64,000 bases of DNA, from the NCBI GenBank assembly GCA_024639185.1, contig JAHEIW010000002.1:2842-66841 (forward strand), given 5' to 3'. The DNA is from Deltaproteobacteria bacterium (GTDB taxonomy: Bacteria > Desulfobacterota > Desulfobacteria > Desulfobacterales > JAHEIW01). This document shows positions 18,582-46,936 of the stretch, piece after piece. The notes below the pieces were generated by a model. It was not told the origin of the DNA, did not search any database, and worked only from the letters and a program-made list of their open reading frames with translations. A program made the position numbers and the translations under genes. How positions within the stretch are numbered: the stretch's first letter is position 1; every line of letters starts with the position of its first letter.

Positions 18582-18597
18582 AGCACAAGATATGCCA
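18582..18597 (-). promoter_or_regulatory. Sigma-54 (-24/-12) promoter upstream of the mrp / lipoyl-domain / CBS genes
   Basis: Minus-strand sequence TGGCATATCTTGTGCT. GG and GC are spaced as in the consensus TGGCAC-N5-TTGCW. Confidence 0.65.
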
Positions 18598-18613
18598 ACA
18601 GGCTTTTTTGTTG

Positions 18614-18639
18614 GTAAAACTAACTAATTCGATTAGTTA
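18614..18639 (-). terminator. Possible intrinsic terminator after the MFS gene
   Basis: Palindrome taactaat-tcg-attagtta (18621-18639) lies just after the stop at 18646-18648. On the minus strand it is followed by GTTTTAC. The stem is AT-rich, so the terminator would be weak. Confidence 0.3.
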
Positions 18640-18645
18640 TCAACA

Positions 18646-19992
18646 TCAGCATGTAAAAATCTTTTTTATTGAGCATTCAAGTTTAGAAAAATTACGAGAT
18701 GGAATTTCGTAAAAATTCGATATCGAGGACATCGATTGCAAGTACTTCATTTTGTGCATAAGAATTAGCCCTGTAACTTCAGTTAAAACTGCCATTGCTA
18801 TAGCAGCGTGGTATCCCCACTGTGTTGCTATTAAGCCGCCTAAAGCTGAACCCGCAACGCAAGCCGTTGCGAGAACCGCACAAAAAATGCCCATGCCTTC
18901 CCCTTCCCCAATAGGTGATAGTGATGCTGTTAAGGCAGTGGCGCTTACAATAAGAAAGGGCCAGCAAAGCACAACGACAGTAAAACTTAAAAATATCAAC
19001 TGAATCGAGCCGCCAAAATGGTGCACCTCCATAAGAAAAAAACCGATAAAAGCCACCAAACGCAATTTCATAAAACTCTTTAAAACGCGGGCCGGACCCA
19101 ATCGATGCGTCCAGTGGCCGGCTTGAGCGTATAAAAAAACAGAAATGCCCATTGCGACAGCAAAAGAGAGTGCGATAAGATTTTGCCCAATTCCATATGC
19201 TTCCTGCATCAAAACCGGATACAAAGTATAAATTGCAGATGAGCCAACAAGGCAGAGAAACCAGACCCCCATGAAATGTTCAAATGGGGTGTTGTGGATT
19301 GAATTAAAATGCCCTAAAGCTTTTAACCTCAAATGGTTAACCTGAAAGTGTGATGGCTCCTGGATCAAGTGACAGTGGCGATTATGACAAATGTTAACCG
19401 GTCGTCTCCCTATTGTCTCGTGCGCCACTTGGGGAGTCAGGCACCCTGGCAAGACCGCAGCAGTAATCAGGCCTGACGCAATAAGCAAACTGGTTCTCAA
19501 ATCAATTTGACTCAAAACGGCGGCAAGTAACATTCCGCTTACCTGACCGCCGCTGTTAAATGTCTGGAGCCAGCCAATTCGTTCGTCCCATTCTGCTTTA
19601 GGATGGACTTCCACGATGAAAAGGTTTCCTACAGTGGCAACCACGTATACGCCAATACCCTGTATCATAGCCAAACCCAGCCATACCGGGAAGGTACTGG
19701 CGAAAGATAAAACAGACAGTGCAATTGCAGTAATTATCAGACTGCTTACCAATAACTCCCGATGAATTCCATACCGATCAGCAACATTCCCAAAAACCGG
19801 CGCGATTAACCCTCCCAGGTTAAAGGCAGCCATTACGAGTCCCACGTGGCAGGCGCTGTTAAAGCGTTTTACCGCCAGAAGCGGTATCAAAATCGGAAAC
19901 ATACCGCCCATCGTACAACCCAATATAGCATAGCTAAGATACCATGGCTCCACCCACCGGTGTTTTGCCTGTCCTATTGCCGGTCGATCCAT
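18646..19992 (-). CDS. MFS transporter (12-TM type)
   Basis: Multiple TM helices and the MFS-type loop motif GNVADRYG. The track start at 20058 overlaps the sigma-54 promoter at 20052-20067. I therefore prefer the internal ATG at 19992 (MDRPAIGQ, AAGGA upstream), with 20040 as an alternative. Confidence 0.78.
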   Translation of the reverse strand: MDRPAIGQAKHRWVEPWYLSYAILGCTMGGMFPILIPLLAVKRFNSACHVGLVMAAFNLGGLIAPVFGNVADRYGIHRELLVSSLIITAIALSVLSFASTFPVWLGLAMIQGIGVYVVATVGNLFIVEVHPKAEWDERIGWLQTFNSGGQVSGMLLAAVLSQIDLRTSLLIASGLITAAVLPGCLTPQVAHETIGRRPVNICHNRHCHLIQEPSHFQVNHLRLKALGHFNSIHNTPFEHFMGVWFLCLVGSSAIYTLYPVLMQEAYGIGQNLIALSFAVAMGISVFLYAQAGHWTHRLGPARVLKSFMKLRLVAFIGFFLMEVHHFGGSIQLIFLSFTVVVLCWPFLIVSATALTASLSPIGEGEGMGIFCAVLATACVAGSALGGLIATQWGYHAAIAMAVLTEVTGLILMHKMKYLQSMSSISNFYEIPSRNFSKLECSIKKIFTC

Positions 19993-20051
19993 GGAAGCTG
20001 TTTTTCCTTTGATTGGAGATTGACCAGATGATGGACTCATACTTTTTATAA

Positions 20052-20067
20052 AGCACAAAATGTGCCA
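20052..20067 (-). promoter_or_regulatory. Sigma-54 promoter upstream of the MFS transporter
   Basis: Minus-strand sequence TGGCACATTTTGTGCT. Confidence 0.6.
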
Positions 20068-20343
20068 CTCATTTCACGCCACTTTGTAAAGCTTAAGCCT
20101 TTATATTTATATGGTTTTAAGGAGCAGCCAGCCATAACTTATTGGCGTATTTAGAATAATCTCAAACTAAAATTCTCAAATTTTCGAAATAAAAAGGGGG
20201 GGAGCAAAGTTGTGAAGGGCGTCTAATACAAATGGAGGCAAAAATTTTATTAGATTATGAGATGAGGAATTTTCCTTATAAAAATCGGCTGAGGTTACGC
20301 ACTCTATTAGAGCTAATATTATGATTTTGGAGTTTATTAAATT

Positions 20344-20709
20344 TTAATAGGGTTCGTAATATCTTACACCGATACCGTATTTATAGGATTCTGTGCTTAA
20401 TATTTCTTCGCACCGTTTGACTTCGCCAACGGTTACTGTACGACAACCACAGTGTAATTGCGAACCGGCGGTTCTTTTCGAAAGTTCTATAATTCTGATA
20501 TATATATTTGCCCCGGGTTTAAATCCAAACTCCGATTCAAGATAGAGACCACCTTCACAATAGTTTAACATTTTTGCGTGACAGTATTGATTGGTGTTAA
20601 AATAGCCACAGACAAGGCGAGCCTCCTGAAAATGGCGATCAAATTTCCTTTTTTCCATATTGGCCACGATATTGGTTTCACCTTTTAGCATCAAGTCAAA
20701 GAGTGGCAA
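20344..20709 (-). CDS. PilZ-domain protein (putative c-di-GMP binding)
   Basis: RKFDR (RxxxR) followed by NYCEGGL ((D/N)xSxxG-like). The TTG track start is uncertain. Confidence 0.5.
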   Translation of the reverse strand: MPLFDLMLKGETNIVANMEKRKFDRHFQEARLVCGYFNTNQYCHAKMLNYCEGGLYLESEFGFKPGANIYIRIIELSKRTAGSQLHCGCRTVTVGEVKRCEEILSTESYKYGIGVRYYEPY

Positions 20710-20717
20710 TTTGAAAT

Positions 20718-20909
20718 CTACCCCTTTTTGTTGTTAGGCGAATAACCGTCAGCGTACCACCCGCTGCCCTTGAGTTCGTAAGTACAGGGAGAAATAATCT
20801 TTTTGGGCCTTCCGATGACACAATGGACATTTAATTCCTCTGTGCCAACTTTAACTAGTTTTGCTGTAACCGTGCCGCCGGGACATTCGAATTCATAAAT
20901 CGGCATCAC
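20718..20909 (-). CDS. FmdB-family zinc-ribbon-like small protein with a degenerate Cys pattern
   Basis: MPIYEFEC... N-terminus and GSGWYADGY tail resemble the CxxC_CxxC_SSSS family. Both CxxC knuckles are reduced to single Cys residues. Confidence 0.45.
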   Translation of the reverse strand: MMPIYEFECPGGTVTAKLVKVGTEELNVHCVIGRPKKIISPCTYELKGSGWYADGYSPNNKKG

Positions 20910-21101
20910 GAAGTCCTCAATCTTGAAAGAAAGTTAGAGAAAATATCGGACAAAAATTCTTACACGATTTTATACAAAATGAGTGCCACCACAGACTCCC
21001 TTATTAAAGTATAACCGTTGGAGCCTATTAAGCATCCGTTGGTTCTTGTTGTGTGTGTTGAAGTTGGGTGGCACTTTAGTTATTTATAAGGCGACGCCAA
21101 A

Positions 21102-21497
21102 TCAATCTTGTTTGTATAATCCTCTTTCACGGTGGATATCCCGTATATTAATCAAATGGGTCAAAGATGCCATAAAGGTGTCCGATGTAAACGGCTTTTC
21201 GATGAATCCCTGAACCTTCAATTTCTTGGCCTCTGAAACGACATTTTCATTGCGGTAGGCAGTAATCAGTATTTTTAAGGCGTTTGGTTGGGTGTGGCCA
21301 ACTCGTTTCAGGAACTCGATACCATCCCTGCCCGGTAGTTTATAATCCACGATAATTAAATCAAAGTCTTGGTCCTTTATTGCTGATAGGCCCTCTTCGG
21401 CGGTCTCTAAGGTCAACACACAACAACCTTCAGCTTCAAAAAAAATGCTCAACGAATCACGGATCCACTCATCATCATCTATGAGTAAAATTTTCAT
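21102..21497 (-). CDS. Single-domain response regulator (CheY-like receiver)
   Basis: MKILLIDDDEW...DLIIVDYKLPGRDG...ILITAY...FIEKPF. I prefer the ATG at 21497 (AGGGA RBS). The track start at 21524 lies only 14 nt from the sigma-54 promoter. Confidence 0.85.
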   Translation of the reverse strand: MKILLIDDDEWIRDSLSIFFEAEGCCVLTLETAEEGLSAIKDQDFDLIIVDYKLPGRDGIEFLKRVGHTQPNALKILITAYRNENVVSEAKKLKVQGFIEKPFTSDTFMASLTHLINIRDIHRERGLYKQD

Positions 21498-21537
21498 TTC
21501 CCTGATTTTACTAAAGAGATCCATAACGCTTTACATA

Positions 21538-21553
21538 AGCATAAGATATGCCA
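21538..21553 (-). promoter_or_regulatory. Sigma-54 promoter upstream of the single-domain response regulator
   Basis: Minus-strand sequence TGGCATATCTTATGCT. It differs by 1 nt from the promoter at 18582-18597. Confidence 0.65.
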
Positions 21554-21679
21554 ATATGTGATACCAAATAAATTCTCTATTTATCAATAGGTTATCTAAA
21601 CACACCACGTTTGCTTTTAGTTTTATGGTTAAAATTTTGAAAATTTACAAAAATATATTTCGCAAAAATTCGAAATCTT

Positions 21680-21882: not shown

Positions 21883-22008
21883 TTATGGAATTTATTGTGA
21901 ATTTGGTGGATTAGCTTCTGCAGTCGGAAGAATATGCCTTTGTATGCATACCTTCATTTACAGTATCGTTTAACCGGCGTTTTCTGAAAATAGCACTTTC
22001 GGGCTTCT

Positions 22009-22650: not shown

Positions 22651-22789
22651 CGCCCTTATTTGCTTACCCCCTCAGACCGGAACCTATCCTTTGAAAAGGC
22701 CGTACCATTAGCGATGGCTCTTTCATTTCAGACGGAAAAAGAATCTTCTTTTCTTAACGCAAATTTTCATGCGAAAATCAATTGATAGC

Positions 22790-26411: not shown

Positions 26412-26701
26412 GTATTGGCAAATCAGCCTATATGAAATTAAATCAAACTATTATCAACCAAGGGGTTCGAAAAGGATTCCTTATTCGTATTCCTTTGTTG
26501 AAAAAGTTCGATATTTTTATTTGAAGAACTTCGAAAGCATCAATCTAATACCCATTAAAAAAAGCTTCAAATTTTGCTTTTGCAAAAAAAAATAGGTCGG
26601 AATAAGGGGATACTGAAAGAATTTAGAAGGGAGATTAAAATGCGCCGGGTTTGCCAATCTTTCAAATTAACTTCTGAGAGAACGGATGGCTTTGGATGGT
26701 G

Positions 26702-28820: not shown

Positions 28821-29996
28821 CTAAACTTCAATGCCGAATCCAATTTTATCGCCATTTCCCAGATAGGCCTTGTCTTTTGATCTGTTCTGAGCTGTGCCCT
28901 CAACCACTGGATACCCCGCCGAAATAAATTTTTTAGCGCACAGGATACCGGTACAATGATTGCAGCCGATCTTTTCGAATCCGTATTTTCCCAGCGATAT
29001 CACCAGATCGTCATATTTGGGGTCCCAATCCTCAAATGGTGAAATATGCAACCCCCCGTAGACGCCGTACAGGTTATCATTTTCATACTTGATCTCGCGA
29101 TAGGCGGTTTCAGCAAATTGAATAATACTTTGATGACAGCAGCCGGTGACGCTCACCAGACCTTTGTCTTTGATATTAAAGTACAGCGATTGTTCCCCAT
29201 AAACCCGGCAGATAATGGGTATTGCAAATACAAAAGAGGCCATACCAGGGATGACTGGGTTTAAACCGGCCTTAACCTTTATCACCTTGCCCTTATGACC
29301 TGCATCTTTGATGTACTGAAGCCCTTCAGGATAAAATCCTTCCGGTATATACATTGTGATCGTCGGGTCATATTTCATGGTGACCGGCAAACCCCAGAAG
29401 TGGTCAAAGTGTTCATGGGAAATAAAAAGGGCCTCAATCTCTCTATTTTCCAGCATCTTATCAATGCCTTCGCGTTTGAAACACTCATCGGTCCATTTAT
29501 ACGACCAGCCGGAATCGAGCAGATATTTATGTTTTTTACCATTGAGTTCTTCCAGTTCGATCAAACAGGCATAGCCGCCGGCATTTTCCGGATGCACGGA
29601 GAGTTTTTCGGTGACCGCCCAGGCTTCATCGAGCTTATCCGGCAGCAGATGTTTGATTTTAGCGATTCCCTTTTCATAGGAGCCTTTACCCAGACCGGAT
29701 CCGTCCCCGAAGGGCGGCCAGTTATAGTCATACTGGTTCACCAGCAGGCCGCCAGCGCCTTTAATATCCCCCATCAAGTGGGCATTTTCAAACCAGCTGG
29801 TTTCAGAGATATTGGTGACTTTGATATTTTTACAGGCCCCGATGTCTGCCAATTTTCTTTCAACTTTGGGAAAGTGGCCTTTGCGCCAGGGTGAGTACGA
29901 ATAAATACCCATCATGGCCAATGTTCCGCCCATCACTCCTATGGCTGTTCCTTTAAAAAAGTCGCGACGATTTATTTTACCTTTTTCGCCAGACAT
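28821..29996 (-). CDS. Tat-exported metallo-beta-lactamase-fold protein
   Basis: Twin-arginine signal NRRDFFKGTAIGVMGG and MBL motif FISHEHFDHFWG (HxHxDH). RBS AAGGAGGT. Confidence 0.8.
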   Translation of the reverse strand: MSGEKGKINRRDFFKGTAIGVMGGTLAMMGIYSYSPWRKGHFPKVERKLADIGACKNIKVTNISETSWFENAHLMGDIKGAGGLLVNQYDYNWPPFGDGSGLGKGSYEKGIAKIKHLLPDKLDEAWAVTEKLSVHPENAGGYACLIELEELNGKKHKYLLDSGWSYKWTDECFKREGIDKMLENREIEALFISHEHFDHFWGLPVTMKYDPTITMYIPEGFYPEGLQYIKDAGHKGKVIKVKAGLNPVIPGMASFVFAIPIICRVYGEQSLYFNIKDKGLVSVTGCCHQSIIQFAETAYREIKYENDNLYGVYGGLHISPFEDWDPKYDDLVISLGKYGFEKIGCNHCTGILCAKKFISAGYPVVEGTAQNRSKDKAYLGNGDKIGFGIEV

Positions 29997-30046: not shown

Positions 30047-31459
30047 TTACTTAATGACATCGATTGCCGCATAAAATACCGGCAACAAAGCAATTGTTAT
30101 AAAGTAGGCTACTACTCCAACAACGGCCCCGACACCCATGCCCCAACCCAGGGCGGGATTCCACCTGACGTCTCTGACAAGAGCCTGCTCGGCTTCATGA
30201 TCGCGGGCAATTTCCTCGGCGGTTTTGGGAACCATCTTCCAACCGGGCCAGTTGTCCATAAACCAGTGGTGTACCAGCCAGATGTTAATCAACCAGATAG
30301 TCGGAATCATTGGAAACTGCTGCGGATGCGAAAACCCTTTTTGAGTGCCCAGAAAGTTATGAGATGTCTTGTAGTATAAAATATACAGCAGGATGGCGGC
30401 AACGATCGTAATCACCGTCCGGATAAGTACGTTGACCGGCATGCTGAATTTTTTGGGCCAGTTGTTGCAGTAAAAGGTAATAAACAGGGCCGGTACCAAA
30501 AAGAACACTGCCATTTCACCAACATGCAGCCAGCGCCAATCCGGTGCAAAAGCTCTACGGGTACCCCGAATGGCCGGTCCCCAGGTCATTTCCTGTAGAA
30601 AATAGAGAAAGAAATGCATGGCAAAGGCAATGGCGATGATTCCAAAAAACGCCACCAGGCGCCGCAACCAGTTCCGCTTGATCAGATTAAACGGATAGCG
30701 ACCCCAGATGGTTTCAACAATCCAGACCGTGACCGTACAACACATGATCCAGGAAACGTGAAAGTTGCCGGAAACGGTGTTGGCGAATTTTTCCCAATAG
30801 GGCGGTGCAATTGAAGTAAAATACTGCCAGGGATAATATAAAATGCCCATGTGCGAATGCATGGTCATAAAATAGACCAAGGTGCTCAGGAAAAAAGTCA
30901 TAATCAGAATACTGACGCCCTTTCCCGGTTGTTTTAAATCCTGCCAGGGGGCCTCCTCGCAGGCAACCACCCAGGCCGGACTCAACCAGGAAGCAATGGC
31001 AGCAAACATCAGGCAGGCCAGAGCCGCGTATTCGATCGCAAAAAATTCGGTAACCCCCGGCAGTTTAGTCAGTTGTCCGGGGTTAAAATAGGCCAAACCA
31101 AAATTTCCCAGCAGCCCTTCAAAGAAACCTTTGATCAAAATGTACAGGACGCCAAACGAGACGGCTGTGAGGACCCCCCCTTTTATCAGTGGATGGGTTT
31201 TTTCCAGCCAGGATCGTTTAAAAGGCCAGTAATTAAAAATGTAAACCATCCAGATGAGTACGATCAACCACCACCGTGTATACATATAGCCCACATAGGG
31301 TGTATACATTCGCATCCATCCGCGCGGATCCTGGAAAATCCACCAGGTGGCATAAAACAAAATCAGCGTAAAGACCAAGCTGACAATGGCCGGAATCGGC
31401 TGCGGCCATCGTTGCGTAAGGCTACGCTCCTCCAGATAGTCTATACCAAATTTTTCCAT
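30047..31459 (-). CDS. Polytopic Trp/Tyr-rich integral membrane protein of unknown family (470 aa)
   Basis: At least 10 hydrophobic segments. Very high aromatic content, with about 35 Trp. RBS GGAAGGAGG. Confidence 0.7.
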   Translation of the reverse strand: MEKFGIDYLEERSLTQRWPQPIPAIVSLVFTLILFYATWWIFQDPRGWMRMYTPYVGYMYTRWWLIVLIWMVYIFNYWPFKRSWLEKTHPLIKGGVLTAVSFGVLYILIKGFFEGLLGNFGLAYFNPGQLTKLPGVTEFFAIEYAALACLMFAAIASWLSPAWVVACEEAPWQDLKQPGKGVSILIMTFFLSTLVYFMTMHSHMGILYYPWQYFTSIAPPYWEKFANTVSGNFHVSWIMCCTVTVWIVETIWGRYPFNLIKRNWLRRLVAFFGIIAIAFAMHFFLYFLQEMTWGPAIRGTRRAFAPDWRWLHVGEMAVFFLVPALFITFYCNNWPKKFSMPVNVLIRTVITIVAAILLYILYYKTSHNFLGTQKGFSHPQQFPMIPTIWLINIWLVHHWFMDNWPGWKMVPKTAEEIARDHEAEQALVRDVRWNPALGWGMGVGAVVGVVAYFITIALLPVFYAAIDVIK

Positions 31460-31917: not shown

Positions 31918-32184
31918 CAGCCAGCAATTTTTTTATACTAATGTTATCAATTTGTTATCGGCATTATGATTAAAAATTTTTCCGAGATAGAGTGGAATTT
32001 AGAAAAATTGCGAAGGCTGAATTAGAAAAATTTCAAGATTAAACTCGCGGTTTATGAATTGGAGAGTAGCTGGAAGTTGCACAAAAATGGCTGATCATTC
32101 TCCTCTTTTGTAAATCGGCAAACAAAGTAATTATGGTTTTATTGGCTTGATTTGCCCCAACGGCCAATTGTAGATAAAAGACAT

Positions 32185-36440: not shown

Positions 36441-36601
36441 TGGATTCCTCCTTAGAGCGTATGTGTTTTTCTAATGATTGAGATGCCGAAATTCTGGAAG
36501 CTGCATTGGGTTCGAGCAGCGAAAAGAAAAATTTTAACCGCATGGCAGTTAAATCATTTCAATGAATTTCGAAATGACTCACTGATTTACGAAGGAAATT
36601 T

Positions 36602-36617: not shown

Positions 36618-36893
36618 TTAATCAAAGATGACAGCATATTATAAATATTCAGTAACTTAGAATATTATCTGATATAGAAAGAGAGGGTTGAGAATCTCAG
36701 ATTCGAAAAACTTCAAATTATTTTTCGCATAATTTCTAAGTTGATTTATCGAAGATTATAAAGGTTTGGTAAAAAGGTAAGATTTTCTTTGGATTTCCAC
36801 TGCGAAAAACAATCAATCATTTAGTGATGATATGTAACTACGTAAATTTTCATTCCTAAGGCTTTCCGATTTTCTATTGGCTTCGTCCAGAAA

Positions 36894-37394: not shown

Positions 37395-37574
37395 ATAGAA
37401 TATTAATTTTTATCTTTCTGGCTAATTTGATCTGTGAAGTTAATTTAGAGTAATTTCGAAGATTGCCTTTAAAAATGACAAATACAGGCGAGATATCTCA
37501 GGAATGAATTAGATCTATAGATTTTTATTGAAATAAAAAAGAATATAGAAGCGCAGTAATAAGAAGACTGCAAG

Positions 37575-38963
37575 TTAATCACCCAGCAATTTTTTTCTGC
37601 GGTAACGGAAGGTGTGATGATTCATTTTCAGTAACCTTGCGGCTTGGCTTTCATTTCCTTTAGCGATTTTAAGGGCCTGTTCAATATAGTCCCTTTCAAA
37701 TGATTGAAGCTGCTCGGACAAATCAATCCCTTCGGGAGGCAAAAGGGCAAGCTCGGCCTCATTTTTGGCTACGGTAAATTGTTGATGCTGATTTTTAAAT
37801 TCAATGCCCAGGTCCTTCAGTTTGAGCTGAGGTCCAGTGCCGATTAGCACTGCTCCTTCCATGAGATTTTTTAACTCCCGAACATTGCCGGTCCAGTTAT
37901 GCGCCAATAACGCATGCTTGGTATCAGGCGATATGTCGCTAAATTCCTTATTAAACTTAGAGCTGAACTCTTGAAGAAAATATTTCGCCAGGGGCACAAT
38001 ATCGTCTGGCCGCTCGTTTAATGAGGGTACCTGGACTTTGACTACCCCCAGTCGGAAATAAAGATCCTTTCGAAATAAACCGTCGTCGATCATCTTATTA
38101 AGGTCTTTGTTGGTGGCGGAAATTAAGCGGGTTTTGATATGTAATTTTTTGGTCCCCCCGACTCTATAAAATTCGCCGAGCTCAAGAAACCTGAGCAGCT
38201 TGGCCTGGGCTTCAAGACTAAGATCGCCAACTTCATCTAAAAATAAAGTACCATTTGCCGACTCCTCGATTAGCCCTTTCTTACCGGATGCTCCGGCACC
38301 GCTGAAGGCTCCTTTTTCATATCCGAAAAGCTCACTTTCGATCAGATCTTTTGGGATAGCCGCACAGTTTACGGTTGCGAAAGGCGCTTGGAAGTTCGGG
38401 CTGTTATAGTGAATAGCGCTGGCAATTAATTCTTTCCCGGTTCCAGTTTCGCCCATGATGAGCACCGGTGTGTCAGGGCTTTTCGCCACCATTTGGACAA
38501 AGTCCATCACATCCTGAATGGCATTACTCTCCCTGATAAAGCATGGGATATTTTCTTTTAGGTGCTTTTCCTGTAAATGTTGAATTTCCTTTTTTAGCCG
38601 GATTGAATCCAGGGCATTGCGAATCGTGACCTCCAATCCGTCCATGTGGAGCGGCTTGATGACATAGTCATAGGCCCCCAGTTTCATGGCCGATATCACG
38701 GTATCGACATCTTCATAAGCCGTTATCATGATGACCAGTATTTCAGGATTTGAGGATTTGATTTGGCGAAGCGCTTCAATCCCATTCATCCCAGGTAAGC
38801 CAACATCAAGCAATACCAAATCGGGGGGATCCTCTTCCAAGGCATTGATGGCAGGTTCCGCCTGTGGAAAAGACCGAATACGATAATCGGCTTCAAGGGT
38901 CAATGTGATGCCGTCACGTATGGTCTGTTCATCGTCTATAACGAATATGGAAAAGGTAATCAT
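37575..38963 (-). CDS. NtrC-family sigma-54-dependent response regulator (REC-AAA+-HTH)
   Basis: REC (VIDDEQT...LVLLDVGLPGMNG...KP), Walker A GETGTGKE, GAFSGA loop (GAFTGA variant), and a C-terminal Fis-type HTH (GNESQAARLLKMNHHTFRYRRKK). Confidence 0.93.
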   Translation of the reverse strand: MITFSIFVIDDEQTIRDGITLTLEADYRIRSFPQAEPAINALEEDPPDLVLLDVGLPGMNGIEALRQIKSSNPEILVIMITAYEDVDTVISAMKLGAYDYVIKPLHMDGLEVTIRNALDSIRLKKEIQHLQEKHLKENIPCFIRESNAIQDVMDFVQMVAKSPDTPVLIMGETGTGKELIASAIHYNSPNFQAPFATVNCAAIPKDLIESELFGYEKGAFSGAGASGKKGLIEESANGTLFLDEVGDLSLEAQAKLLRFLELGEFYRVGGTKKLHIKTRLISATNKDLNKMIDDGLFRKDLYFRLGVVKVQVPSLNERPDDIVPLAKYFLQEFSSKFNKEFSDISPDTKHALLAHNWTGNVRELKNLMEGAVLIGTGPQLKLKDLGIEFKNQHQQFTVAKNEAELALLPPEGIDLSEQLQSFERDYIEQALKIAKGNESQAARLLKMNHHTFRYRRKKLLGD

Positions 38964-38969
38964 AATTCG

Positions 38970-41648
38970 CTAAGCTCCTTTGCGTTTTTTTAATGGAATT
39001 TCGATCCGAAATTCCGCACCCCCTAATTCACTGGCCGACACGGTCATTGATCCACCGTGATCGCTGATAATTCGGTGACACAAACTCAAACCGATACCGG
39101 TTCCCTCGTGTTTGGTAGTAAAGTACGGATCCAGTATTTTATCTCTCATTTCAAGGGGAACACCCGGTCCTGAATCAGAAACTTGAATAATAATTCGGTC
39201 GGCTTCAACGAAAGACGCAACGACAATATTTTTGCCGGTTTCCATAGTTTTCATAGCTTCGGCAGCATTATTTAAAAGGTTTAATACCATCTCTTCAATT
39301 AAGTTTTTATCTGCATATGATTGCGGCAAATTATTTGACAATAATTTATCGATTTTTATGCCGCTTTTGCCCATCGTCACGGCAGTAAGGTTGATCGCAT
39401 CTGTGATGGGTTCATTGATATCGATTAAGGTTATCTTCGGTTCACTGGGTTTGGCGAAATCCATGACTCTTCGAATAACGGATTCAATTTTAATAGATGC
39501 TGATTGAAGTTGTTTCAATATTTGCTCAACTTTTGCTTCAGTTCCATCCCGGTGATGGAGTTTTTTGAGCGTGTTTAGATAGATATTGATTCCCGAAAGA
39601 GGATTTCGGATTTCATGTGCAATACCGGCTGCCACCCGACCCAGAGATGCCATCTTATCCTGGATGGTTAAGAGATGTTCAAGTTCTTTGGCTTTGGTCA
39701 TGTCCATTATATTGACCAGTATCGCATCTTTCCCCTGAAATTCTATCCGGCTGGCCTGGCAATGGACCCATTTCATTTGGCTCCGATTGGCTCTTCCATC
39801 CTGTGGATAAAATCTGAAATCCATAGATTCAATCGGCAGATTCCCCGACCTGATACTTTTATAAAATGCATCTACCTTTGCGATATCGTCCGGGTGGATA
39901 GAGTCCTTGTCTTTAAATTTAATCGGACGCGGTAATGGACCCAGCAGTCTTTCTTGTTCCGGATTCTGGTAGACGATTTGGTCATTTTGAATGATCGATA
40001 TACCCGTTAAGGAATGTTCTACTAATTCTCGAAAGCGTTTTTCGCTTTCAACTATGGCCGTTTGCGCTCGATCGCGTTCTATGATTCGTCCAATTCGTTC
40101 AGCAATCGTATTTATCAAAGCTCTTTCTTCTATTAAAAACGGTCCCTCATCGCTTTCCGGTCGCTCTTCAAGATAATGAGCAGATAGAACACCAACCGTC
40201 TTATCATTGACAATAATGTTTTGTGCAAGCATCCTTTGTGTTTCTTCAAAGTTTTCTGTGCTGAATTCTTGACTGTCTATGATGATTCTACCACATGTGA
40301 TTTCTGGATACTGATAAGCCGGTGGAATGAGCTCAACGATTCCCTGGAGGATCTCCTCTAGTGTAAGTCTGCGTCTTTCAACCAAACGTGAAATCTCAAA
40401 AAGGCAATTTAACTCTTTAATCCGCTCTTCCACCTCATTCATACTTTTCTGTAAATCTTTCTCTACTGATCTGCGTTTCTTTATCTCTTTATCCAATTCA
40501 TCCCTTGAAGCTGTAACAGCCTTTAACCGGTCAGTCATTTGATCGAATGCCCGTCCCAGCTGTCCGATCTCATTCCGTGCATCGGTAGCAATTTTATGGT
40601 CTAAATTGCCTTTACCGATTTCTTCCGCACCAGCTTGTAAAAGTTGAATCGGATCGGATATGGATTTTCCAACGATAAATGCAGCAAACATACTGATTAC
40701 AATAAGAGCAAGGACGAGCACGAGGACAAAATTTCTTAACGTCGTTATGGGTTCAAAAGCTTCAGCGACGTCTATTTTGGCCACCATCCCCCAGTCCAGC
40801 GAAGGAATGTATCGCCAGGCTGCGATGACTTTTTGCCCGCGGTAGTCCACAGATATTCCACTTCCGTTGTTGCCGTTGAGCGCTTTTTGAACAGGTATGG
40901 CTTGCTTTTCACCAAAATCAACCTTTCTCTTTAGAACTGCACTTGGATCATGACGAAGTGGATTTAGAAACAGAGCTTGATTCCCGGCTTTTTTGGCGAT
41001 CAACGTCTCACCGGTTGTTCCCAAACCGGTCGTATTTTGAATGAGTTCGTAAATGGGTGCCATGTCGCTCTCAAAAGCGGCTACGCCAATGAGCTGGCCC
41101 ATATCAGAACGAATCGGAGCTGAGATGATCATGGAGAATTGGCCGGTTTCGATTTTACTGGCAACAATATCTGAAAGTTGGATTCCGGTTTTGCCATCAT
41201 CAAATGATGTCCCCAACAGGTCCGGTTTGATCGTGCCAAGTATGCCCGAAGCTAAAGAGCGATCCAAAACGTAGACGATCCTTCCCGTCGAATTTATCAG
41301 GATAACGTTTCTGAAATCATAAACCGGCTTATATATTCGAATGGCCTGGTCAAGTTCGTCTCTGATGGCTTCATAAACCGGAGTGGAAAAGTCGCCCGAA
41401 AAGTCTGCAAGCATGGCAGCCAATTTTTTTAGTGTTGGGCGCTCTTGTGCAATCTGGATGTGTTTTTTCTGATCGACGAAAAAGTCTTCTATTCTTTTGA
41501 CCTTGAGATCGGCAATGCTTTGCAATTCTTCCATTCGCAGGGATGTCAGAGCTTTCATGGCGTGATAATATCCAAGCAGACCGACAAAACACATTGGTAT
41601 GATCGTGCACGCCAGAAGAATCATGATCATTTTTTTTCGGACGGTCAT
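38970..41648 (-). CDS. Sensor histidine kinase with periplasmic Cache-like domain, HAMP, GAF/PAS, HisKA and HATPase
   Basis: Two TM helices flank a periplasmic domain of about 270 aa. HAMP, H-box AAGIAHEIRNPLSGI and G-boxes DSGPGV / GTGIGLS are present. Confidence 0.9.
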   Translation of the reverse strand: MTVRKKMIMILLACTIIPMCFVGLLGYYHAMKALTSLRMEELQSIADLKVKRIEDFFVDQKKHIQIAQERPTLKKLAAMLADFSGDFSTPVYEAIRDELDQAIRIYKPVYDFRNVILINSTGRIVYVLDRSLASGILGTIKPDLLGTSFDDGKTGIQLSDIVASKIETGQFSMIISAPIRSDMGQLIGVAAFESDMAPIYELIQNTTGLGTTGETLIAKKAGNQALFLNPLRHDPSAVLKRKVDFGEKQAIPVQKALNGNNGSGISVDYRGQKVIAAWRYIPSLDWGMVAKIDVAEAFEPITTLRNFVLVLVLALIVISMFAAFIVGKSISDPIQLLQAGAEEIGKGNLDHKIATDARNEIGQLGRAFDQMTDRLKAVTASRDELDKEIKKRRSVEKDLQKSMNEVEERIKELNCLFEISRLVERRRLTLEEILQGIVELIPPAYQYPEITCGRIIIDSQEFSTENFEETQRMLAQNIIVNDKTVGVLSAHYLEERPESDEGPFLIEERALINTIAERIGRIIERDRAQTAIVESEKRFRELVEHSLTGISIIQNDQIVYQNPEQERLLGPLPRPIKFKDKDSIHPDDIAKVDAFYKSIRSGNLPIESMDFRFYPQDGRANRSQMKWVHCQASRIEFQGKDAILVNIMDMTKAKELEHLLTIQDKMASLGRVAAGIAHEIRNPLSGINIYLNTLKKLHHRDGTEAKVEQILKQLQSASIKIESVIRRVMDFAKPSEPKITLIDINEPITDAINLTAVTMGKSGIKIDKLLSNNLPQSYADKNLIEEMVLNLLNNAAEAMKTMETGKNIVVASFVEADRIIIQVSDSGPGVPLEMRDKILDPYFTTKHEGTGIGLSLCHRIISDHGGSMTVSASELGGAEFRIEIPLKKRKGA

Positions 41649-41742: not shown

Positions 41743-41779
41743 ATTTCGAAATTTTGCGAAAAAAATTTCGAAATTTTTC
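41743..41779. promoter_or_regulatory. Tandem palindromic candidate enhancer (UAS) sites AAATTTCGAAATTT x2
   Basis: aatttcgaaatttt (41743-41756) and aaatttcgaaattttt (41764-41779). The CG centres are 22 bp apart and lie 120 and 98 bp upstream of the GG of the sigma-54 promoter at 41867. Confidence 0.5.
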
Positions 41780-41866
41780 TAAATTTAAAATCCCATTAAT
41801 TTAAATTAAAGGCAAAAATTTAAATAACCCTTTAATTTTAAATAACTTTTCATTAGAACTCCGCAC

Positions 41867-41882: not shown

Positions 41883-42046
41883 TTGAAATAATCAATGAAA
41901 AATCCGTACCACCTTCACCTCCAAAGCAGCAATTTGTAAGACACAAATAAATTTTTGAAAGGGGTTCTGTACCGCTGTATTTTCAATAATGTGAGCCTGC
42001 CGTACAGTTTCGTTTAACCGATAAAAAACAAACCAAGGAGGCCCAA

Positions 42047-43354
42047 ATGTCTGATAAGGTCGTCAAACTGGGTGGCAAAAAGAAAAGCCGGTTTATGGAC
42101 AAGGTCATGCAGCTTCTGCCGGAAGGCGGCAATCTGAATCTTTGCCTGACCTGCGGGGCCTGTTCGTCCGGATGCCCGGCCACGGGTCTGGATGGTATGG
42201 ATCCGCGTAAATTTTTACGCATGGCCGCTCTGGGAATGGATGCTGAAATTCTCAAATCGGACTGGCCCTGGATGTGCACCCAGTGCCAGCGCTGCATTTA
42301 TGTCTGTCCAATGAAAATCGACATTCCCCAGCTGGTGTACAATGTGCGCGGAACCCGGCCGCGAGAAGAACGGCCAAAGGGGATCTTGGGTTCCTGTGAT
42401 ATGGCCCTGAAAAATGACAGCTGCAGTGCCATGGGCGCATCGCCGGAGGATTTCACCTTCGTGGTCGAAGACGTTCTGGAAGAGTACCAGGAGGCCCAGC
42501 CCGAATTTAAAGACATGCAGGCACCCATTGACAAACAGGGCGCCACCTTCTTTTTAAATCAAAATTCCAGGGAGCCGGTAACCGAACCCGATGAAATGGT
42601 TCCCCTCTGGAAAATTCTGCACCTGGTGAGCGCGGACTGGACCTATGGGAGTAAGGGCTGGGGCGGGGAAAACTACTGCATGTTTCTGGCCGACAATGAC
42701 TCCTGGGAACACATTGTGCGAACCACCGCCAAACAGGCTGACGATCTGGGCTGCAAGATATATCTGAATACCGAGTGAGGGCATGTCACTTTCTCAGTCC
42801 TGGCAGGACTGAAAAAATTCAACATTGACCACAAATTTGAGGTTAAAAATATCTATGAGTACTATGCGCAATGGATCCGCGAAGGCAAACTTCAGGTCAA
42901 TTCCGATTGGAACAAAGATCTAAAAATCAAGTTTACGGTTCAGGATCCCTGCCAGATCGTGCGCAAAAGCTACGGCGATCCCATCGCCGAAGATCTGCGC
43001 TTTGTGGTCAAAACCCTGGTGGGGGAGGAAAACTTCATTGATATGACCCCCAACCGCTCCAACAATTACTGCTGCGGCGGAGGGGGTGGTTTTCTGCAGT
43101 CCGGCTATAAACAACAGCGGTTGGAATTCGGCCGCTTGAAAGACAATCAAATTCAAGCCACCAAAGCCGACTATTGCATCGCGGGTTGCCACAATTGCCA
43201 CGCCCAGATTCACGAGCTCAGCGACCACTATGGTGGGGGCTACGGTGTCATCCATCTGTGGACCCTGATCTGTTTTGCCCTGGGTATCCTCGGTGAAAAT
43301 GAACGAGAATATCTGAACGATGATCTCAAAGAGGTGGCCGTTTATGGCGCTTAG
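42047..43354 (+). CDS. HdrD/GlpC-like Fe-S oxidoreductase (2x[4Fe-4S] ferredoxin plus CCG domains) with an in-frame UGA at 42776-42778; candidate selenoprotein
   Basis: Track ORFs 42047..42778 and 42959..43354 are in the same frame. No stop occurs between them other than this TGA. There is no ATG and no RBS downstream until far inside the second part. N-terminal motifs CLTCGACSSGCP and CTQCQRCIYVCP. C-terminal CCG motif DPC-x39-CCGGGGG...CHNC. Context is ..KIYLNTE-U-GHVTF... Confidence 0.78.
42789..42814 (+). other. Candidate bacterial SECIS hairpin
   Basis: Stem tcagtcct / aggactga (42793-42800 and 42804-42811) with G-rich apical loop GGC (42801-42803). The stem extends by ttt/aaa with a bulged C. 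The loop lies 25 nt after the UGA. Confidence 0.5.
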
Positions 43355-43368
43355 TACAAGAGAAACCC

Positions 43369-44916
43369 ATGAACACACCCACTAAATGGAAAGTCGTCTT
43401 AATCGATGACGAAGAAGACATTCGAGATGTCCTGGCCGTTGCGCTTCGGGATAGCGGGTATGATGTCATTGCGGCAGAAGATGGCGAAACCGGCTTACGG
43501 TTGTGTGAAGAGACATCCCCCCAAATTGTCGTTACCGATATCCGCATGCCGGGGATGGACGGTCTCCAAGTATTAGAGGTTTTGAAAAACAAGACCCCCG
43601 ATATAGAGGTCATTGTGGCCACTGCATTCGGGGAGATGGACGTGGCTATTCAGGCGCTGCAGCTCGATGCTTCGGATTTTATCACCAAGCCCATCAGCGA
43701 CGAAGCTTTGCATCTGGCACTGAAACGCGCCAAAGCCCGCTTTAGCTCGAAAAAGCAGCTTAGAGACTACACCGCTCTTTTGGAGCGCGAGAAGGCGGAG
43801 ACAAGTCAAGAACTTTTTAAAACCCTATCTTTCCAGAAAAATTTAATTGCGCACTCCATCGACGGCATCCTGGGATGTGACGAAAACAAGCGGGTCATCA
43901 TCTATAATAAAAGCATGGAAAAGATGCTGGGTTACGAGAGCAACGAAGTGTTGCACAAAATGACATTTAGCCATTTTTTATCGCCCGGCGAGGAGCTGAA
44001 CTTTATTGCCGAACTGGAAGATGAGCGTTACGGTGGCAAACACAAGCTACAACTTTATGAAACCACCCTGAAGGCAAAATCCGGCCGCAGGATTCCTGTA
44101 CAAGTATCGGCGACCCCCTTATTTGACCATGAAAACGTCAATGGTCTAGTTTGTTTTTTCAGAGATCTGCAGGAAACCCGAAAGCTAGAAAGAGAAATGG
44201 AGGATCAGGCGCGCATCCTGCATCAGGACAAAATGATGTCTTTAGGACGACTGGCTGCCAGTGTGGTTCACGAGATCAACAACCCGTTAGCGGGAATTTT
44301 AAATTATCTGCGGCTGATGCTCCGGATCCTGGATGAGGAGCAGCTGACAGAAGAGCGGGTGGAAAAATTTAAGCATTATTTAAAGCTGGTCGAAAATGAA
44401 ATCAATCGATGCGCACAGATTGTATCCAGCTTGCTCAATTTCTCGCGCGTATCTCCGCCGGCCTTTGGCGAAGTCCGGATTAAAGAGCTCGTCGAACGCT
44501 GTATCATTTTGAGCCAGCACAAGCTGGAACTGAGCAACATCCAGCTGAAATATAGCATCCAAAATGGCATCCCTGCTGTCCGGGGCGACTTCAACCAACT
44601 GCAGCAATGTATCATCAATCTCATATTCAATGCAATCGATGCCATGTCGGAGGGAGGAACGTTGACCCTGCAAGGACACCATGAATCTGCGACAGGAAAA
44701 GTGGTAATAGCCATAAAAGACACCGGTCAGGGTATTGCCCCTGATGCTCTTCCGTATATTTTTGAACCTTTTTTTACGACGAAAAGTCAAGCTTTTGGCG
44801 TAGGACTCGGCTTGTCGACGGTTTACGGCATTATCGAACGACACAACGGCAGTGTTGATGTCGACAGTCAACCTGGGAAAGGTGCCGTGTTTACGCTAAA
44901 AATACCGGTTCTTTGA
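43369..44916 (+). CDS. Hybrid response regulator / histidine kinase (REC-PAS-HisKA-HATPase)
   Basis: REC (VVLIDDEED...VVTDIRMPGMDG...ITKP), a PAS domain, H-box VVHEINNPLAGI, and G-boxes DTGQGI / GVGLGLS. Confidence 0.9.
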   Translation: MNTPTKWKVVLIDDEEDIRDVLAVALRDSGYDVIAAEDGETGLRLCEETSPQIVVTDIRMPGMDGLQVLEVLKNKTPDIEVIVATAFGEMDVAIQALQLDASDFITKPISDEALHLALKRAKARFSSKKQLRDYTALLEREKAETSQELFKTLSFQKNLIAHSIDGILGCDENKRVIIYNKSMEKMLGYESNEVLHKMTFSHFLSPGEELNFIAELEDERYGGKHKLQLYETTLKAKSGRRIPVQVSATPLFDHENVNGLVCFFRDLQETRKLEREMEDQARILHQDKMMSLGRLAASVVHEINNPLAGILNYLRLMLRILDEEQLTEERVEKFKHYLKLVENEINRCAQIVSSLLNFSRVSPPAFGEVRIKELVERCIILSQHKLELSNIQLKYSIQNGIPAVRGDFNQLQQCIINLIFNAIDAMSEGGTLTLQGHHESATGKVVIAIKDTGQGIAPDALPYIFEPFFTTKSQAFGVGLGLSTVYGIIERHNGSVDVDSQPGKGAVFTLKIPVL

Positions 44917-44937
44917 TCCGACCCGCGAGGATCTGAC

Positions 44938-46677
44938 ATGAATCATGCCACAAATCCAAAGAAAACCAGTGTCCGGTCTGATGAATGGCTTGAGATTCTG
45001 GATGAAATAAATGTCGGCGCTTTTACGGTCGACAACAACCGGCGGGTTGCGTCGATGAACCTGAATGCCCAGGCTTTAATCGGAATGAAAGAAAGTGAGG
45101 CCATCGGAAAAGACTGCCGCGAGGTGTTTGTCGGGGTCCCCTGTCTGGCAAGGTGTCCGTTTAGCGGTTCATCAGATTCGGATACCGAAGAGCCGGTTAT
45201 TCAAATCGAGGACGAAAATCAACAACCCCATTTCGTCACCCGCATGGCAACGCCGGTTTATGGACGGAACCAATCGGCGGCCGGTTGTCTGACGATATTG
45301 CAGGACCATTCACCGATTGCCGATCTGATAGACCGCATTCATTATGAGGAGCGCAGTCTGAAAATAATTCTGGACAACCTTGATGTCGGAATTTTCACCG
45401 TCGACCGCAGTGGTCATATCACTTTTTTTAATACCGAGGCAGAAAAGATTTCAGGCTACAATCGTCGCGACGTTTTGGGTCAATCGTGTACGACGCTGTT
45501 TGAAGGCAAGGGCGTCCGGGATTTGTGTTTATTAAAAGAGTCCATCATTGATGGCGAATCACGCAGCAGCCAGCAGGGTAAAATGATGACACGAGACGGC
45601 GTGACCATCCCCATCCGGGCCAACTACATGGCGCTTCGCAACGAGAAAGGCACGATTGTGGGCGGGTTGGCGACGTTTCATGACCTGACCCTGATACGAC
45701 AGTTTAAGCAGGCGATGCGCAATCGCTATACCTTCCATGATATGGTTGGCAAAAGCCCACTGATGCAAAAAATTTTCGGGATGGTCAATATTGTCGCCTC
45801 CACAGATGCCACCATTCTGATCGAAGGCACAACGGGAACCGGCAAAGACCTGCTGGCCAAGGTCATCCATTCAGCCAGTCACAGGGCGAATAAACCATTT
45901 GTCAAAGTGAATTGCGCCGCCATACCCGATAACCTGATCGAATCGGAGATGTTCGGTTATGTCAAAGGCGCGTTTACCGGGGCCGAAAGAGATAAGATCG
46001 GGCGGTTCCAGGAGGCTGAGGGCGGCACCATTCTTTTAGATGAGATTGGTGATCTACCGCTCCCCTTGCAAGCTAAGCTGCTGCGCGTTATCGAAGATAA
46101 GGAATTTTATCGTTTGGGCAGCCGGCATACGATTAAAGTCAATACCCGCATAATTTCGGCCACAAACCGCAATCTCGAAAAGCTGGTAAAAAACCGGCTT
46201 TTCAGAGAAGATCTTTATTACCGGCTGAACGTGTTCCGTATCGAAATACCTACTCTAAGAGAGCGGCAAGACGATCTACCCCTCTTGATCGGTCACATTT
46301 TAAGACGCCTGGTTGCCGCAGCGGGGCAGCGGCCACCGGAAGTATCTGAAACGGTAATGAAAATTCTGCTGAACTACACCTATCCCGGAAACGTCAGAGA
46401 ACTGGAAAATATTTTAGAGCACGCCCTGATCACCTGCCAGCACGATACCCTCGAAGAGCGACATCTTCCCGAATATCTCATAAGCCCCCAAACCGCACGC
46501 CGACCCGGGCTGCGCGAGAAACAACAGCGCCTTCCGATCCCAGACAATCTGGAGTGTGATGATATTCTGGCCGCCCTCAACCAACACAACTGGCACCGCA
46601 TCCGGACCGCCAGGGCTTTGGGAATGGACCGCACCACGCTCTGGCGTAAGATGAAGAAATTCGGCCTCAGTGATTGA
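44938..46677 (+). CDS. Sigma-54-dependent transcriptional activator with two PAS sensor domains and no receiver
   Basis: Walker A GTTGTGKD, exact GAFTGA loop, ESEMFGY, and a C-terminal HTH ([21 protein letters not shown]). The first PAS carries C60/C69/C73 ([16 protein letters not shown]). Confidence 0.92.
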
Positions 46678-46686
46678 GCTTTTTTT
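46665..46686 (+). terminator. Weak terminator-like hairpin plus T7 run at the end of the EBP gene
   Basis: cctca-gtgat-tgagc followed by ttttttt. The stem is only 4-5 bp. Confidence 0.25.
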
Positions 46687-46742
46687 ATATTCTGACATAA
46701 AGCACCGCTGAACCCAGTTAGTGCAGCATATGTTGCAGATTC

Positions 46743-46754
46743 TGTTGTACAACA
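46743..46754. promoter_or_regulatory. Perfect palindrome TGTTGTACAACA, a candidate UAS for the hdr operon promoter
   Basis: 12-bp perfect palindrome. Related sites are TGCAGCATATGTTGCA (46722-46737) and TGTTGTAAATAGTGCAACA (46817-46835). All lie 85-200 bp upstream of the promoter at 46921. Confidence 0.4.
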
Positions 46755-46920
46755 CCGCGTCTTTAACCAAATTCATTATATTTTATATACTTACAGAGAT
46801 TACGGCCCACGCATCGTGTTGTAAATAGTGCAACATCATTGCGAGCCCCCGTCCTCAAATCATGATCACCACTCCGCTAACCCTCTGTAATTAATATCAT
46901 AGCTTTTTATTCCGCTCACC

Positions 46921-46936
46921 TGGCATAGTCTATGCT
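46921..46936 (+). promoter_or_regulatory. Sigma-54 promoter upstream of the REC-hdr operon
   Basis: Plus-strand sequence TGGCATAGTCTATGCT, about 75 nt upstream of the ATG at 47012. Confidence 0.7.

Follow-up and report, generated by a model that had tools for sequence, protein, structure and literature searches.

The stretch of DNA analysed here, referred to as the window, comprises 64 kb of contig JAHEIW010000002.1 from an uncultured Desulfobacterales lineage and contains eight predicted sigma-54 (RpoN) promoters, P1 to P8 (Table 1), seven of which share an upstream enhancer and are proposed to answer to one activator, EBP1. Genes behind the promoters were identified with Pfam and NCBIfam, and families in these databases matched the identities listed for P1–P8 in an earlier annotation made from the letters alone (the original prediction). 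P1 faces an Mrp/NUBPL gene (18371-17481) followed by genes for lipoyl-domain and CBS proteins and possibly Usp and DUF4405 proteins, P2 faces an MFS transporter gene, and P3 the gene of a single-domain REC protein, possibly together with a 121-amino-acid (aa) open reading frame (ORF, 20709-20347). Behind P4 lie genes for DUF5320, DksA-type zinc finger and GT5-like proteins, and the unit possibly continues to DUF1638 and methyltransferase genes. P5 is followed by a conserved 78-aa ORF (31793-31557), a 470-aa membrane protein, a metallo-beta-lactamase (MBL)-fold protein and a 628-aa CobW-type GTPase, and P6 by cooS (36440-34413; above the TIGR01702 cut-off), a 231-aa ORF and genes for radical SAM and rubredoxin-like proteins. 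P7 precedes the gene of an HdrD-like selenoprotein (42047-43354), the REC-PAS kinase gene HK2 and the gene of the PAS-AAA+-HTH activator EBP2, and P8 an operon (47012-57563) encoding REC, HdrA-like, MvhD, FrhB-like, HdrA with an embedded REC, HdrC and HdrB proteins. On the minus strand between P6 and P7 are encoded the dCache-HAMP kinase HK1, the REC-AAA+-HTH activator EBP1 and a Usp protein.

Table 1. Predicted promoters, upstream elements and regulatory genes of the window, with related sites in other loci (L numbers).
Feature	Position	Strand	Description
P1	18582-18597	-	Sigma-54 promoter, TGGCATATCTTGTGCT
P1 IHF-like site	18627-18639	-	TAACTAATCGAAT, 2 mismatches to YAANNNNTTGATW, 42 bp upstream of TGGCA
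P1 enhancer	18681-18721	-	Two TTCGAA-type units, 23 bp start to start, 83 bp to TGGCA
P2	20052-20067	-	Sigma-54 promoter, TGGCACATTTTGTGCT
P2 enhancer	20149-20188	-	Two units, 22 bp spacing, 81 bp to TGGCA
P3	21538-21553	-	Sigma-54 promoter, TGGCATATCTTATGCT
P3 IHF-like site	21582-21594	-	TAACCTATTGATA, perfect
P3 enhancer	21634-21674	-	Two units, 23 bp spacing, 80 bp to TGGCA
P4	26396-26411	-	Sigma-54 promoter, TGGCACGCTTTATGCT
P4 IHF-like site	26441-26453	-	TAATAGTTTGATT, perfect
P4 enhancer	26495-26535	-	Two units (the weakest), 23 bp spacing, 83 bp to TGGCA
P5	31902-31917	-	Sigma-54 promoter, TGGCATGCTGCGTGCA
P5 IHF-like site	31945-31957	-	TAACAAATTGATA, perfect
P5 enhancer	31997-32037	-	Two units, 23 bp spacing, 79 bp to TGGCA
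P6	36602-36617	-	Sigma-54 promoter, TGGCATACATCATGCA
P6 IHF-like site	36647-36659	-	TAAGTTACTGAAT, 2 mismatches
P6 enhancer	36700-36739	-	Two units, 22 bp spacing, 82 bp to TGGCA
P7	41867-41882	+	Sigma-54 promoter, TGGCATACTCCATGCT, divergent from kinase gene HK1
P7 IHF-like site	41825-41837	+	TAACCCTTTAATT, 1 mismatch
P7 enhancer	41745-41784	+	Best two units (TTCGAAATTTTGCGAAAA, TTCGAAATTTTTCTAAAT), 22 bp spacing, 82 bp to TGGCA
P8	46921-46936	+	Sigma-54 promoter, TGGCATAGTCTATGCT
P8 candidate enhancer region	46722-46835	+	TGTTGCA/TGCAACA half-sites, about -90 to -200
P8 palindrome	46722-46737	+	TGCAGCAT/ATGTTGCA
P8 repeat	46743-46754	+	TGTTGTACAACA
P8 repeat	46817-46835	+	TGTTGTA-N5-TGCAACA
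EBP1	37578-38963	-	REC-AAA+(GAFSGA)-HTH_8, NtrC1-type activator (Pfam)
HK1	38973-41648	-	dCache_1-HAMP-(PAS)-HisKA-HATPase sensor kinase (Pfam)
HK2	43369-44916	+	REC-PAS-HisKA-HATPase kinase, in P7 operon
EBP2	44938-46674	+	PAS-AAA+(GAFTGA)-HTH_8 activator, behind P7
rpoN	2134-3567	-	Three Pfam domains, RpoN box ARRTVAKYR, lptB-rpoN-hpf-ptsN context
Sigma-54 site, EBP1 to next gene	L011 3607		
Sigma-54 site, EBP1 to next gene	L013 ~4690		
Sigma-54 site, EBP1 to next gene	L015 11499		
Sigma-54 site, EBP1 to next gene	L016 7530		
Sigma-54 site, EBP1 to next gene	L017 12180		

A search of both strands of the window with the strict promoter pattern TGGCAYNNNNNNTGCW (TGGCAY-N6-TGCW) returned exactly the eight sites of the original prediction, on the strands given there and with GG and GC exactly 10 bp apart in each. 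Only 0.85 matches were expected from dinucleotide-preserving shuffles (maximum of 4 in 100), and the looser pattern TGGC-N8-TGC gave 28 matches against 11 expected. When every position on both strands was scored with a 12-column sigma-54 matrix, our own approximation of the published consensus, P1–P8 took the top eight ranks (13.6–16.2 bits), and the ninth-best score (12.6 bits) fell inside a gene. All eight sites lie within the 16% of the window that is non-coding and on the same strand as the gene they face, with gaps to the start codon of 210, 59, 40, 172, 108, 161, 164 and 75 nt from P1 to P8, in keeping with the intergenic, co-oriented placement and the leaders of 30–210 nt proposed earlier.

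Alignment of the upstream regions on TGGCA revealed one motif common to P1–P7 and absent from P8. The motif is an 18-bp unit with the consensus TTCGAAATTTTTCGAAAT, consisting of two TTCGAA hexamers 10 bp apart (approximately TTCGAA-ATTT-TTCGAA). A matrix built from the 14 units of P1–P7 found exactly seven unit pairs in the window, one for each of these promoters, plus a lone unit at 37443-37460. The two units start 22 or 23 bp apart in all seven pairs, and the proximal unit ends 79–83 bp before the T of TGGCA in seven out of seven. As a guard against circularity, the matrix was rebuilt seven times, each time without one promoter, and the left-out units still ranked 1–32 of 127,966 positions. 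The pairs are centred about 90–115 bp upstream of TGGCA; that of P7 is also about 100 bp upstream of the divergent HK1 gene. Given the spacing of 10 bp between hexamers and 22–23 bp between units, the four hexamers would be presented on about one face of the helix.

A second element, resembling the IHF consensus WATCAANNNNTTR in its complementary form YAANNNNTTGATW, starts 40–42 bp upstream of TGGCA at six of the seven promoters, in surrounding DNA that is A+T-rich; it is perfect at three of them, carries one or two mismatches at the other three, and occurs at the same position in many relatives. IHF may act at these six promoters, and the putative order of enhancer, IHF-like bend and -24/-12 element is the textbook layout of sigma-54 promoters. 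The sequences between these elements are dissimilar among the seven modules, which argues that the modules are not copied repeats but independently maintained architectures. From the shared elements and their geometry, P1–P7 very likely form one regulon. Three lower-scoring minus-strand matches of sigma-54 type (20862, 20973 and 24059) have no enhancer and show imperfect GG/GC contexts, and were not counted.

Conservation was followed in two collections. Searching genomes with CobW retrieved Desulfosarcina and Desulfobacteraceae metagenome-assembled genomes (MAGs), a result that assigns the window to this group, with seven useful loci, in which synteny was poor beyond the operon of the 470-aa, MBL-fold and CobW proteins, so that only P5 was directly testable. 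Searching metagenomes with EBP1 retrieved 63 loci, including about 25 orthologues at 62–95% identity, and most of the strong sigma-54 sites at the orthologue loci carry two enhancer units, 103–107 and 80–85 bp upstream. A module was then defined as a proximal enhancer unit followed 78–87 bp later by a bare NGG-N10-GCN. Of the 38 distinct modules obtained in this way, 31 come from relatives and the other 7 from the window; all read TGGCA...TGC, with distances from enhancer to TGGCA of 78–84 bp (mode 82). The 237 kb surrounding orthologues of the HK1/EBP1 pair (62–87% identity) contained 33 modules. Control loci totalling 400 kb, whose homologues were all distant, contained none, and the same-family loci retrieved through CobW (148 kb) contained one. 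Sequence analysis shows that the motifs are present, how they are arranged, that they are conserved and that they are linked to EBP1 orthologues.

Module-linked gene families common to the window and its relatives, in varied order, are those of cooS, the HdrD-like protein, the REC-PAS kinase, CBS and Usp proteins and the 231-aa ORF, and the relatives add many Usp genes as well as NifU-like and CooC-like genes. Equivalents of P7 were found in at least 10 loci and those of P6 upstream of cooS in L015 and L016. P5 has equivalents in L004 (TGGCATATCTTTTGCA, before a small ORF), in L001 (weaker) and in L031, where a module next to HK1-EBP1 precedes the pair of 78-aa and 470-aa genes. P8 has an equivalent in L019, and P1 one before Mrp in L005; no orthologous loci of P2 and P3 were recovered in the collections searched. 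The DUF5320 orthologues corresponding to P4 lie inside the cooS operon in L015 and L016, after cooS and the radical SAM gene and with no promoter of their own, indicating that operon boundaries shift. In L001 and L004 the operon of the 470-aa, MBL-fold and CobW proteins adjoins a different activator (36–42% identity) and has a sigma-54 site with no TTCGAA enhancer, whereas the same operon in L031 adjoins HK1-EBP1 and has a module.

These data bear on whether the matches might be chance occurrences or repeats that are not promoters, for instance a dispersed repeat of intergenic DNA or the operator of a palindrome-binding repressor. Five of the eight cores do contain a GCAY-N5-RTGC inverted repeat, and the intergenic DNA is A+T-rich, a property that whole-window shuffles do not model. 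Such an origin is nevertheless extremely improbable in view of the count of 8 matches against 0.85 expected, the orientation of every site towards a gene, the dissimilar inter-motif sequences, which speak against a copied element, and the conservation of the asymmetric TGG...GCW ends. Moreover, when the enhancer alone is taken as the starting point, each NGG-N10-GCN partner proves to read TGGCA...TGC, and the fixed geometry of enhancer, IHF-like site and promoter is a signature of activator-dependent promoters. We are highly confident, as far as sequence can tell, that the eight sites are genuine sigma-54 promoters, and P1–P8 are predicted to depend on RpoN.

The genomes of Desulfovibrio vulgaris and Geobacter are about 3.7–3.8 Mb in size. 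All eight sites of the window fall within 28.4 kb, and none scoring 13 or more was found in the remaining 35.6 kb. The published totals of sigma-54 promoters are 87 for D. vulgaris and 108 for Geobacter sulfurreducens (PMC4641369). With the approximate genome sizes above, these totals average about one promoter per 35–42 kb, and the density in the interval is about ten times those averages. The sigma-54 promoters could occur at about this density throughout the lineage, since Desulfobacteria have the largest activator repertoires known (52–69 per genome) and the relatives also contain strong non-module sites, about one per 15–20 kb. Such a lineage background is very unlikely as the explanation, considering the emptiness of the other 35.6 kb, the published averages and the fact that one enhancer class accounts for seven of the eight sites, which gives the density a specific cause. 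The tenfold density is instead attributed to the clustering of one multi-operon regulon. The notion of a dense RpoN-dependent island is supported in this sense, and refined to mainly one regulon, P1–P7, plus P8 with a different enhancer. The rpoN gene, placed in the same window by the original prediction, is present with its RpoN box and would supply the sigma factor; it was found near HK1-EBP1 in none of the relatives examined, and its position 15 kb from the regulon, in the usual lptB-rpoN-hpf-ptsN context, is best regarded as incidental.

The two sigma-54 activators expected in the window are likewise there and differ in their contact loops (Table 1). Activator genes usually adjoin their targets (PMC4641369). 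EBP1 matches the Aquifex NtrC1 structures (1NY5/4L4U) with an E value of 1e-100, and HK1 lies directly upstream of the EBP1 orthologue in every contig that reaches that far. In L017 and L025, loci of 21 kb that include no EBP2 orthologue, modules occur on both sides of HK1-EBP1. The predicted recognition helix of EBP1 (...MNHHTFRYRRKKL) is nearly invariant in orthologues accompanied by the TTCGAA enhancer. The L027 orthologue (68% identical; helix NRHTFRY) is accompanied by a pair of the TTGCGCAA type, placed likewise 84 bp from a TGGCA site, and the L030 orthologue (62% identical; helix NYYTFRH) by TGTGCA-N4-TGCACA, so that the predicted recognition helix co-varies with the enhancer type in these few cases. 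On the strength of this co-variation and of the linkage of modules to HK1-EBP1, EBP1 is probably, though by no means certainly, the activator that binds the TTCGAA enhancer of P1–P7.

Alternatively, the promoters might be real and the TTCGAA enhancer bound by EBP2 or by an activator encoded outside the window, with EBP1 controlling, for example, P8. EBP2 is transcribed from P7, which has the enhancer, so that positive autoregulation is conceivable; EBP2 orthologues are linked as well in L015, L016 and L019, and the source genome probably encodes dozens of activators. We consider this assignment unlikely because modules flank HK1-EBP1 in L017 and L025, where EBP2 is missing from the range covered, because P8 directly follows EBP2, lacks the TTCGAA motif and has conserved repeats of its own, and because the enhancer type co-varies with the helix of EBP1.

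P8 lies 247 bp after the stop codon of EBP2 and has no TTCGAA units; its candidate enhancer region contains TGTTGCA/TGCAACA half-sites and related repeats. In L019, the EBP2 orthologue is followed by the P8 promoter (TGGCACATTCTATGCT) with its adjoining bases and, partly kept, the TGCAACAT half-sites, and then by the REC orthologue. This arrangement is compatible with a cascade in which EBP1 activates P7, P7 expresses EBP2 and EBP2 activates P8, a scheme to which we would give even chances.

Whether the sites are "near-consensus", as first described, depends on the position considered. The canonical -12 box is TTGC. The eight sites have the highest scores in the window, but all of them carry a purine in place of the canonical T at -15. 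The base at this position is A or G in 8 of 8 window sites and in 36 of 38 modules, and T in none. Strict-pattern sites with no enhancer in the same relatives have 7 A and 6 T (Fisher p = 0.002), and several of those with A probably belong to the regulon, their enhancers having diverged. At the Klebsiella nifH promoter, changes from pyrimidine to T just upstream of the -12 GC strengthen closed-complex formation and make the promoter less reliant on its cognate bound activator. By analogy, a regulon-wide non-T at -15 could serve as insulation from other activators. The Desulfovibrio consensus is tTGCt at -12 and tGGcacg at -24 (PMC4641369), and the -12 box reads RTGC here.

The promoter positions also affect start codons and leaders. 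Taking the C of GC as -12, transcription is predicted to start at about 20041 from P2 and at about 21527 from P3. For the other promoters the predicted starts are near 18571 (P1), 26385 (P4), 31891 (P5), 36591 (P6), 41893 (P7) and 46947 (P8). The longest-ORF starts are TTG 20058, which is upstream of +1 and inside P2, and ATG 21524, at +4 and 3 nt after the predicted P3 start. ATG 21497 would give MKILLIDDD, a typical REC start, and ATG 19992 a normal MFS N-terminus. Moving the starts from 20058 to 19992 and from 21524 to 21497, as had been suggested, is thus reasonable, but it is not forced: an in-frame ATG at 20040 is available, which at about +2 of P2 could start the MFS protein on a leaderless mRNA. 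Leaderless translation from in-frame ATGs at about +2 to +4 was considered for P2 and P3 together and set aside, the open frames being too short for significance.

An Rfam search of the window gave no known RNA and hence no known riboswitch in the long leaders. The first approximately 20 transcribed bases after P7 (AATGAAAAAWCCGTACCA, 41893-41915, plus strand) are conserved in relatives and the rest of the leader is not. The P7 equivalents of L013, L015, L016, L019, L020, L023 and L025 show them too, with an ATG at about +3; in L019 and L023 this ATG shares the frame of the hdrD-like gene. The conserved stretch could be an RNA element, encode a leader peptide or provide a leaderless start. The leader of cooS, 161 nt from P6 to the start codon, contains a hairpin resembling a terminator and, after it, a T-run (TTTAACTGCCATGCGGTTAAA ATTTTTCTTT; 36533-36553, minus strand). 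This element has no Rfam match and may be an attenuator.

In relatives, a sigma-54 site, often with an enhancer, is found between EBP1 and the next gene, which encodes a Usp or NifU-like protein (Table 1). No sigma-54 site is present at the aligned position of the window (37395-37577, minus strand; TAGATCTAATTCATTCCT compared with TGGCACGTTATATGCT), where the lone enhancer-like unit lies; the missing site before the Usp gene looks like a promoter loss in this lineage. The lone unit itself was considered as a relic of a Usp promoter, but alignment with relatives puts it in the 5' leader and it is probably fortuitous. In the same-family MAG locus L005, two stretches (2253-2430 and 5713-5890) hold enhancer pairs with candidate promoters that precede Mrp and DUF1638 orthologues, and the pair at 5713-5755 is also 78 bp from a good opposite-strand site preceding a Usp gene.

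Among the downstream genes, the selenoprotein reading of the hdrD-like gene made earlier is supported. Its in-frame TGA (42776-42778, plus strand; context LNTE-U-GHVTF) is kept in two relatives, L019 and L023, the frame remains open for about 190 codons beyond it, and a hairpin (CAGUCCUGGCAGGACUG) lies 18 nt downstream, all consistent with selenocysteine at this codon. Behind P8, the operon begins with a stand-alone REC gene (47012-47455), and its 1144-aa HdrA-like flavoprotein (52620-56054, plus strand) has a complete REC domain (residues 195-304) between the N-terminal ferredoxin domains and the FAD domain, which suggests phosphorylation control of an electron-transfer enzyme.

NCBIfam and PDB searches assigned no function to the 470-aa, 231-aa, 121-aa and 755-aa proteins and matched the MBL-fold protein only to uncharacterised family members. 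The Trp-rich 470-aa membrane protein (30050-31459, minus strand), with no match in Pfam, NCBIfam or PDB, and the MBL-fold protein (28824-29996, minus strand) are both preceded by the 78-aa ORF and are 84–94% identical across species (L001–L006 and L031), and the neighbouring CobW protein is only 58–69% identical. Conservation of the pair is unusually strong for proteins with no assigned function. The 755-aa ORF (11924-14188, minus strand), which follows a gap of 404 nt and would be the most distal gene of the possible P1 transcription unit, had no Pfam or NCBIfam match.

Taken together, the likely explanation of the locus is that P1–P8 are genuine sigma-54 promoters, P1–P7 forming a regulon under EBP1 and P8 a second tier. 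HK1, with its Cache domain (residues about 40–290), would sense a ligand, probably extracytoplasmic, and phosphorylate EBP1; EBP1 would then assemble on the TTCGAA enhancer, be brought by the bend to the closed RpoN-polymerase complex and open this complex by ATP hydrolysis. We infer both the pairing of this activator with the enhancer and the signal. P7 would also transcribe the second kinase/activator pair, HK2/EBP2, and EBP2 is the most likely activator of P8, and with it of the large hdr-like operon, acting via the TGTTGCA/TGCAACA repeats. The predicted targets are cooS and accessory genes, the HdrD-like selenoprotein, Fe-S/metal chaperones (Mrp and CobW), a transporter and signalling and stress proteins, together with many Usp and CBS proteins in relatives.

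Several points weigh against this explanation. The sigma-54 scores come from an approximate matrix rather than a published one, and the purine at -15 departs from the consensus. Because the relatives share phylogeny, the 38 modules do not count as so many independent events. Retrieval of the loci via EBP1 builds in part of the linkage, and the controls are mostly from other taxa. Enhancer pairs in L005 are about 117 bp, not 82 bp, from their candidate promoters, one of which has GA for GC at -12. The enhancer units of P4 are weak, and no convincing IHF-like site was found at P2. Operon extents were drawn from gene spacing only, and scans of the window for sigma-70 promoters and terminators stayed at chance level, leaving operon ends undefined.

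In its fullest form the proposal is a tentative one, to which we would give somewhat less than an even chance: an undescribed two-tier sigma-54 regulon of uncultured marine Desulfosarcina-like sulfate reducers, in which a Cache kinase and an NtrC1-type activator would co-induce CO dehydrogenase, Hdr-like complexes, Ni/Fe-S maturation and Usp/CBS proteins via a rigid TTCGAA enhancer, the purine at -15 acting as a built-in weak -12 box that imposes a strict need for the cognate activator and IHF and insulates the promoters from at least 50 other activators. In the literature searched, neither the enhancer sequence nor the Cache-sensor input nor the target set seems to have been described, and a search on the TTCGAAA motif returned only irrelevant eukaryotic work. 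The regulon would give bacteria that are known from metagenomes alone a defined regulatory unit, in which one kinase appears to switch on CO dehydrogenase, Hdr-like complexes, metal-cofactor chaperones and stress proteins jointly. It would tie several genes with no assigned function, including those of the 470-aa membrane protein and its beta-lactamase-fold partner, to one physiological response, and the enhancer-plus-promoter signature offers a search key for the rest of the regulon in related genomes. The understanding of the sigma-54 promoter mechanism is unchanged by it.

The closest layouts appear to be the nif cluster of Klebsiella and the regulons reconstructed for D. vulgaris, including that of OrpR with IHF. 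In Klebsiella, several nif sigma-54 promoters lie within about 24 kb, with a shared upstream activator sequence about 80–150 bp away and an IHF site between, and regulation has two tiers, NtrC turning on the operon that encodes NifA. The nif promoters deviate beside -12, and as a result they need their cognate activator bound to the DNA. Clustered promoters, a common enhancer, an IHF-like bend, two tiers and a deviation beside -12 are thus features that the window would share with nif. Unlike the TGT-N10-ACA of nif, however, the window enhancer consists of TTCGAA-N4-TTCGAA pairs; the top-tier sensor is a Cache-domain kinase and the host an uncultured Desulfobacterales lineage; the targets are cooS, Hdr-like proteins, metal/Fe-S chaperones, Usp and CBS proteins instead of nitrogenase; and the first-tier activator is predicted to serve most of the promoters, the second-tier one a single promoter.

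The sigma-54 regulome of D. vulgaris Hildenborough comprises many activators whose genes stand beside their target operons and whose upstream sites were derived by comparative genomics (Kazakov et al. 2015, PMC4641369). That organism is likewise a sulfate reducer with activator genes co-localised with sigma-54 targets, but its order (Desulfovibrionales) and promoter consensus differ, and the passages searched are silent on carbon monoxide, heterodisulfide and universal stress (PMC4641369). The orp operons are under joint control of sigma-54 polymerase, IHF and the cognate activator OrpR (PMC8359166); OrpR, whose regulon is small, is a redox sensor of the PAS type, whereas EBP1 is a response regulator predicted to serve seven promoters. 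EBP1 resembles NtrC1 of Aquifex aeolicus, NtrC and ZraR in its REC-AAA+-HTH_8 architecture, its proposed paired dyad-like upstream sites and its adjacent histidine kinase, and differs from them in having the contact loop GAFSGA instead of GAFTGA and a predicted regulon whose content is unrelated to nitrogen or zinc.

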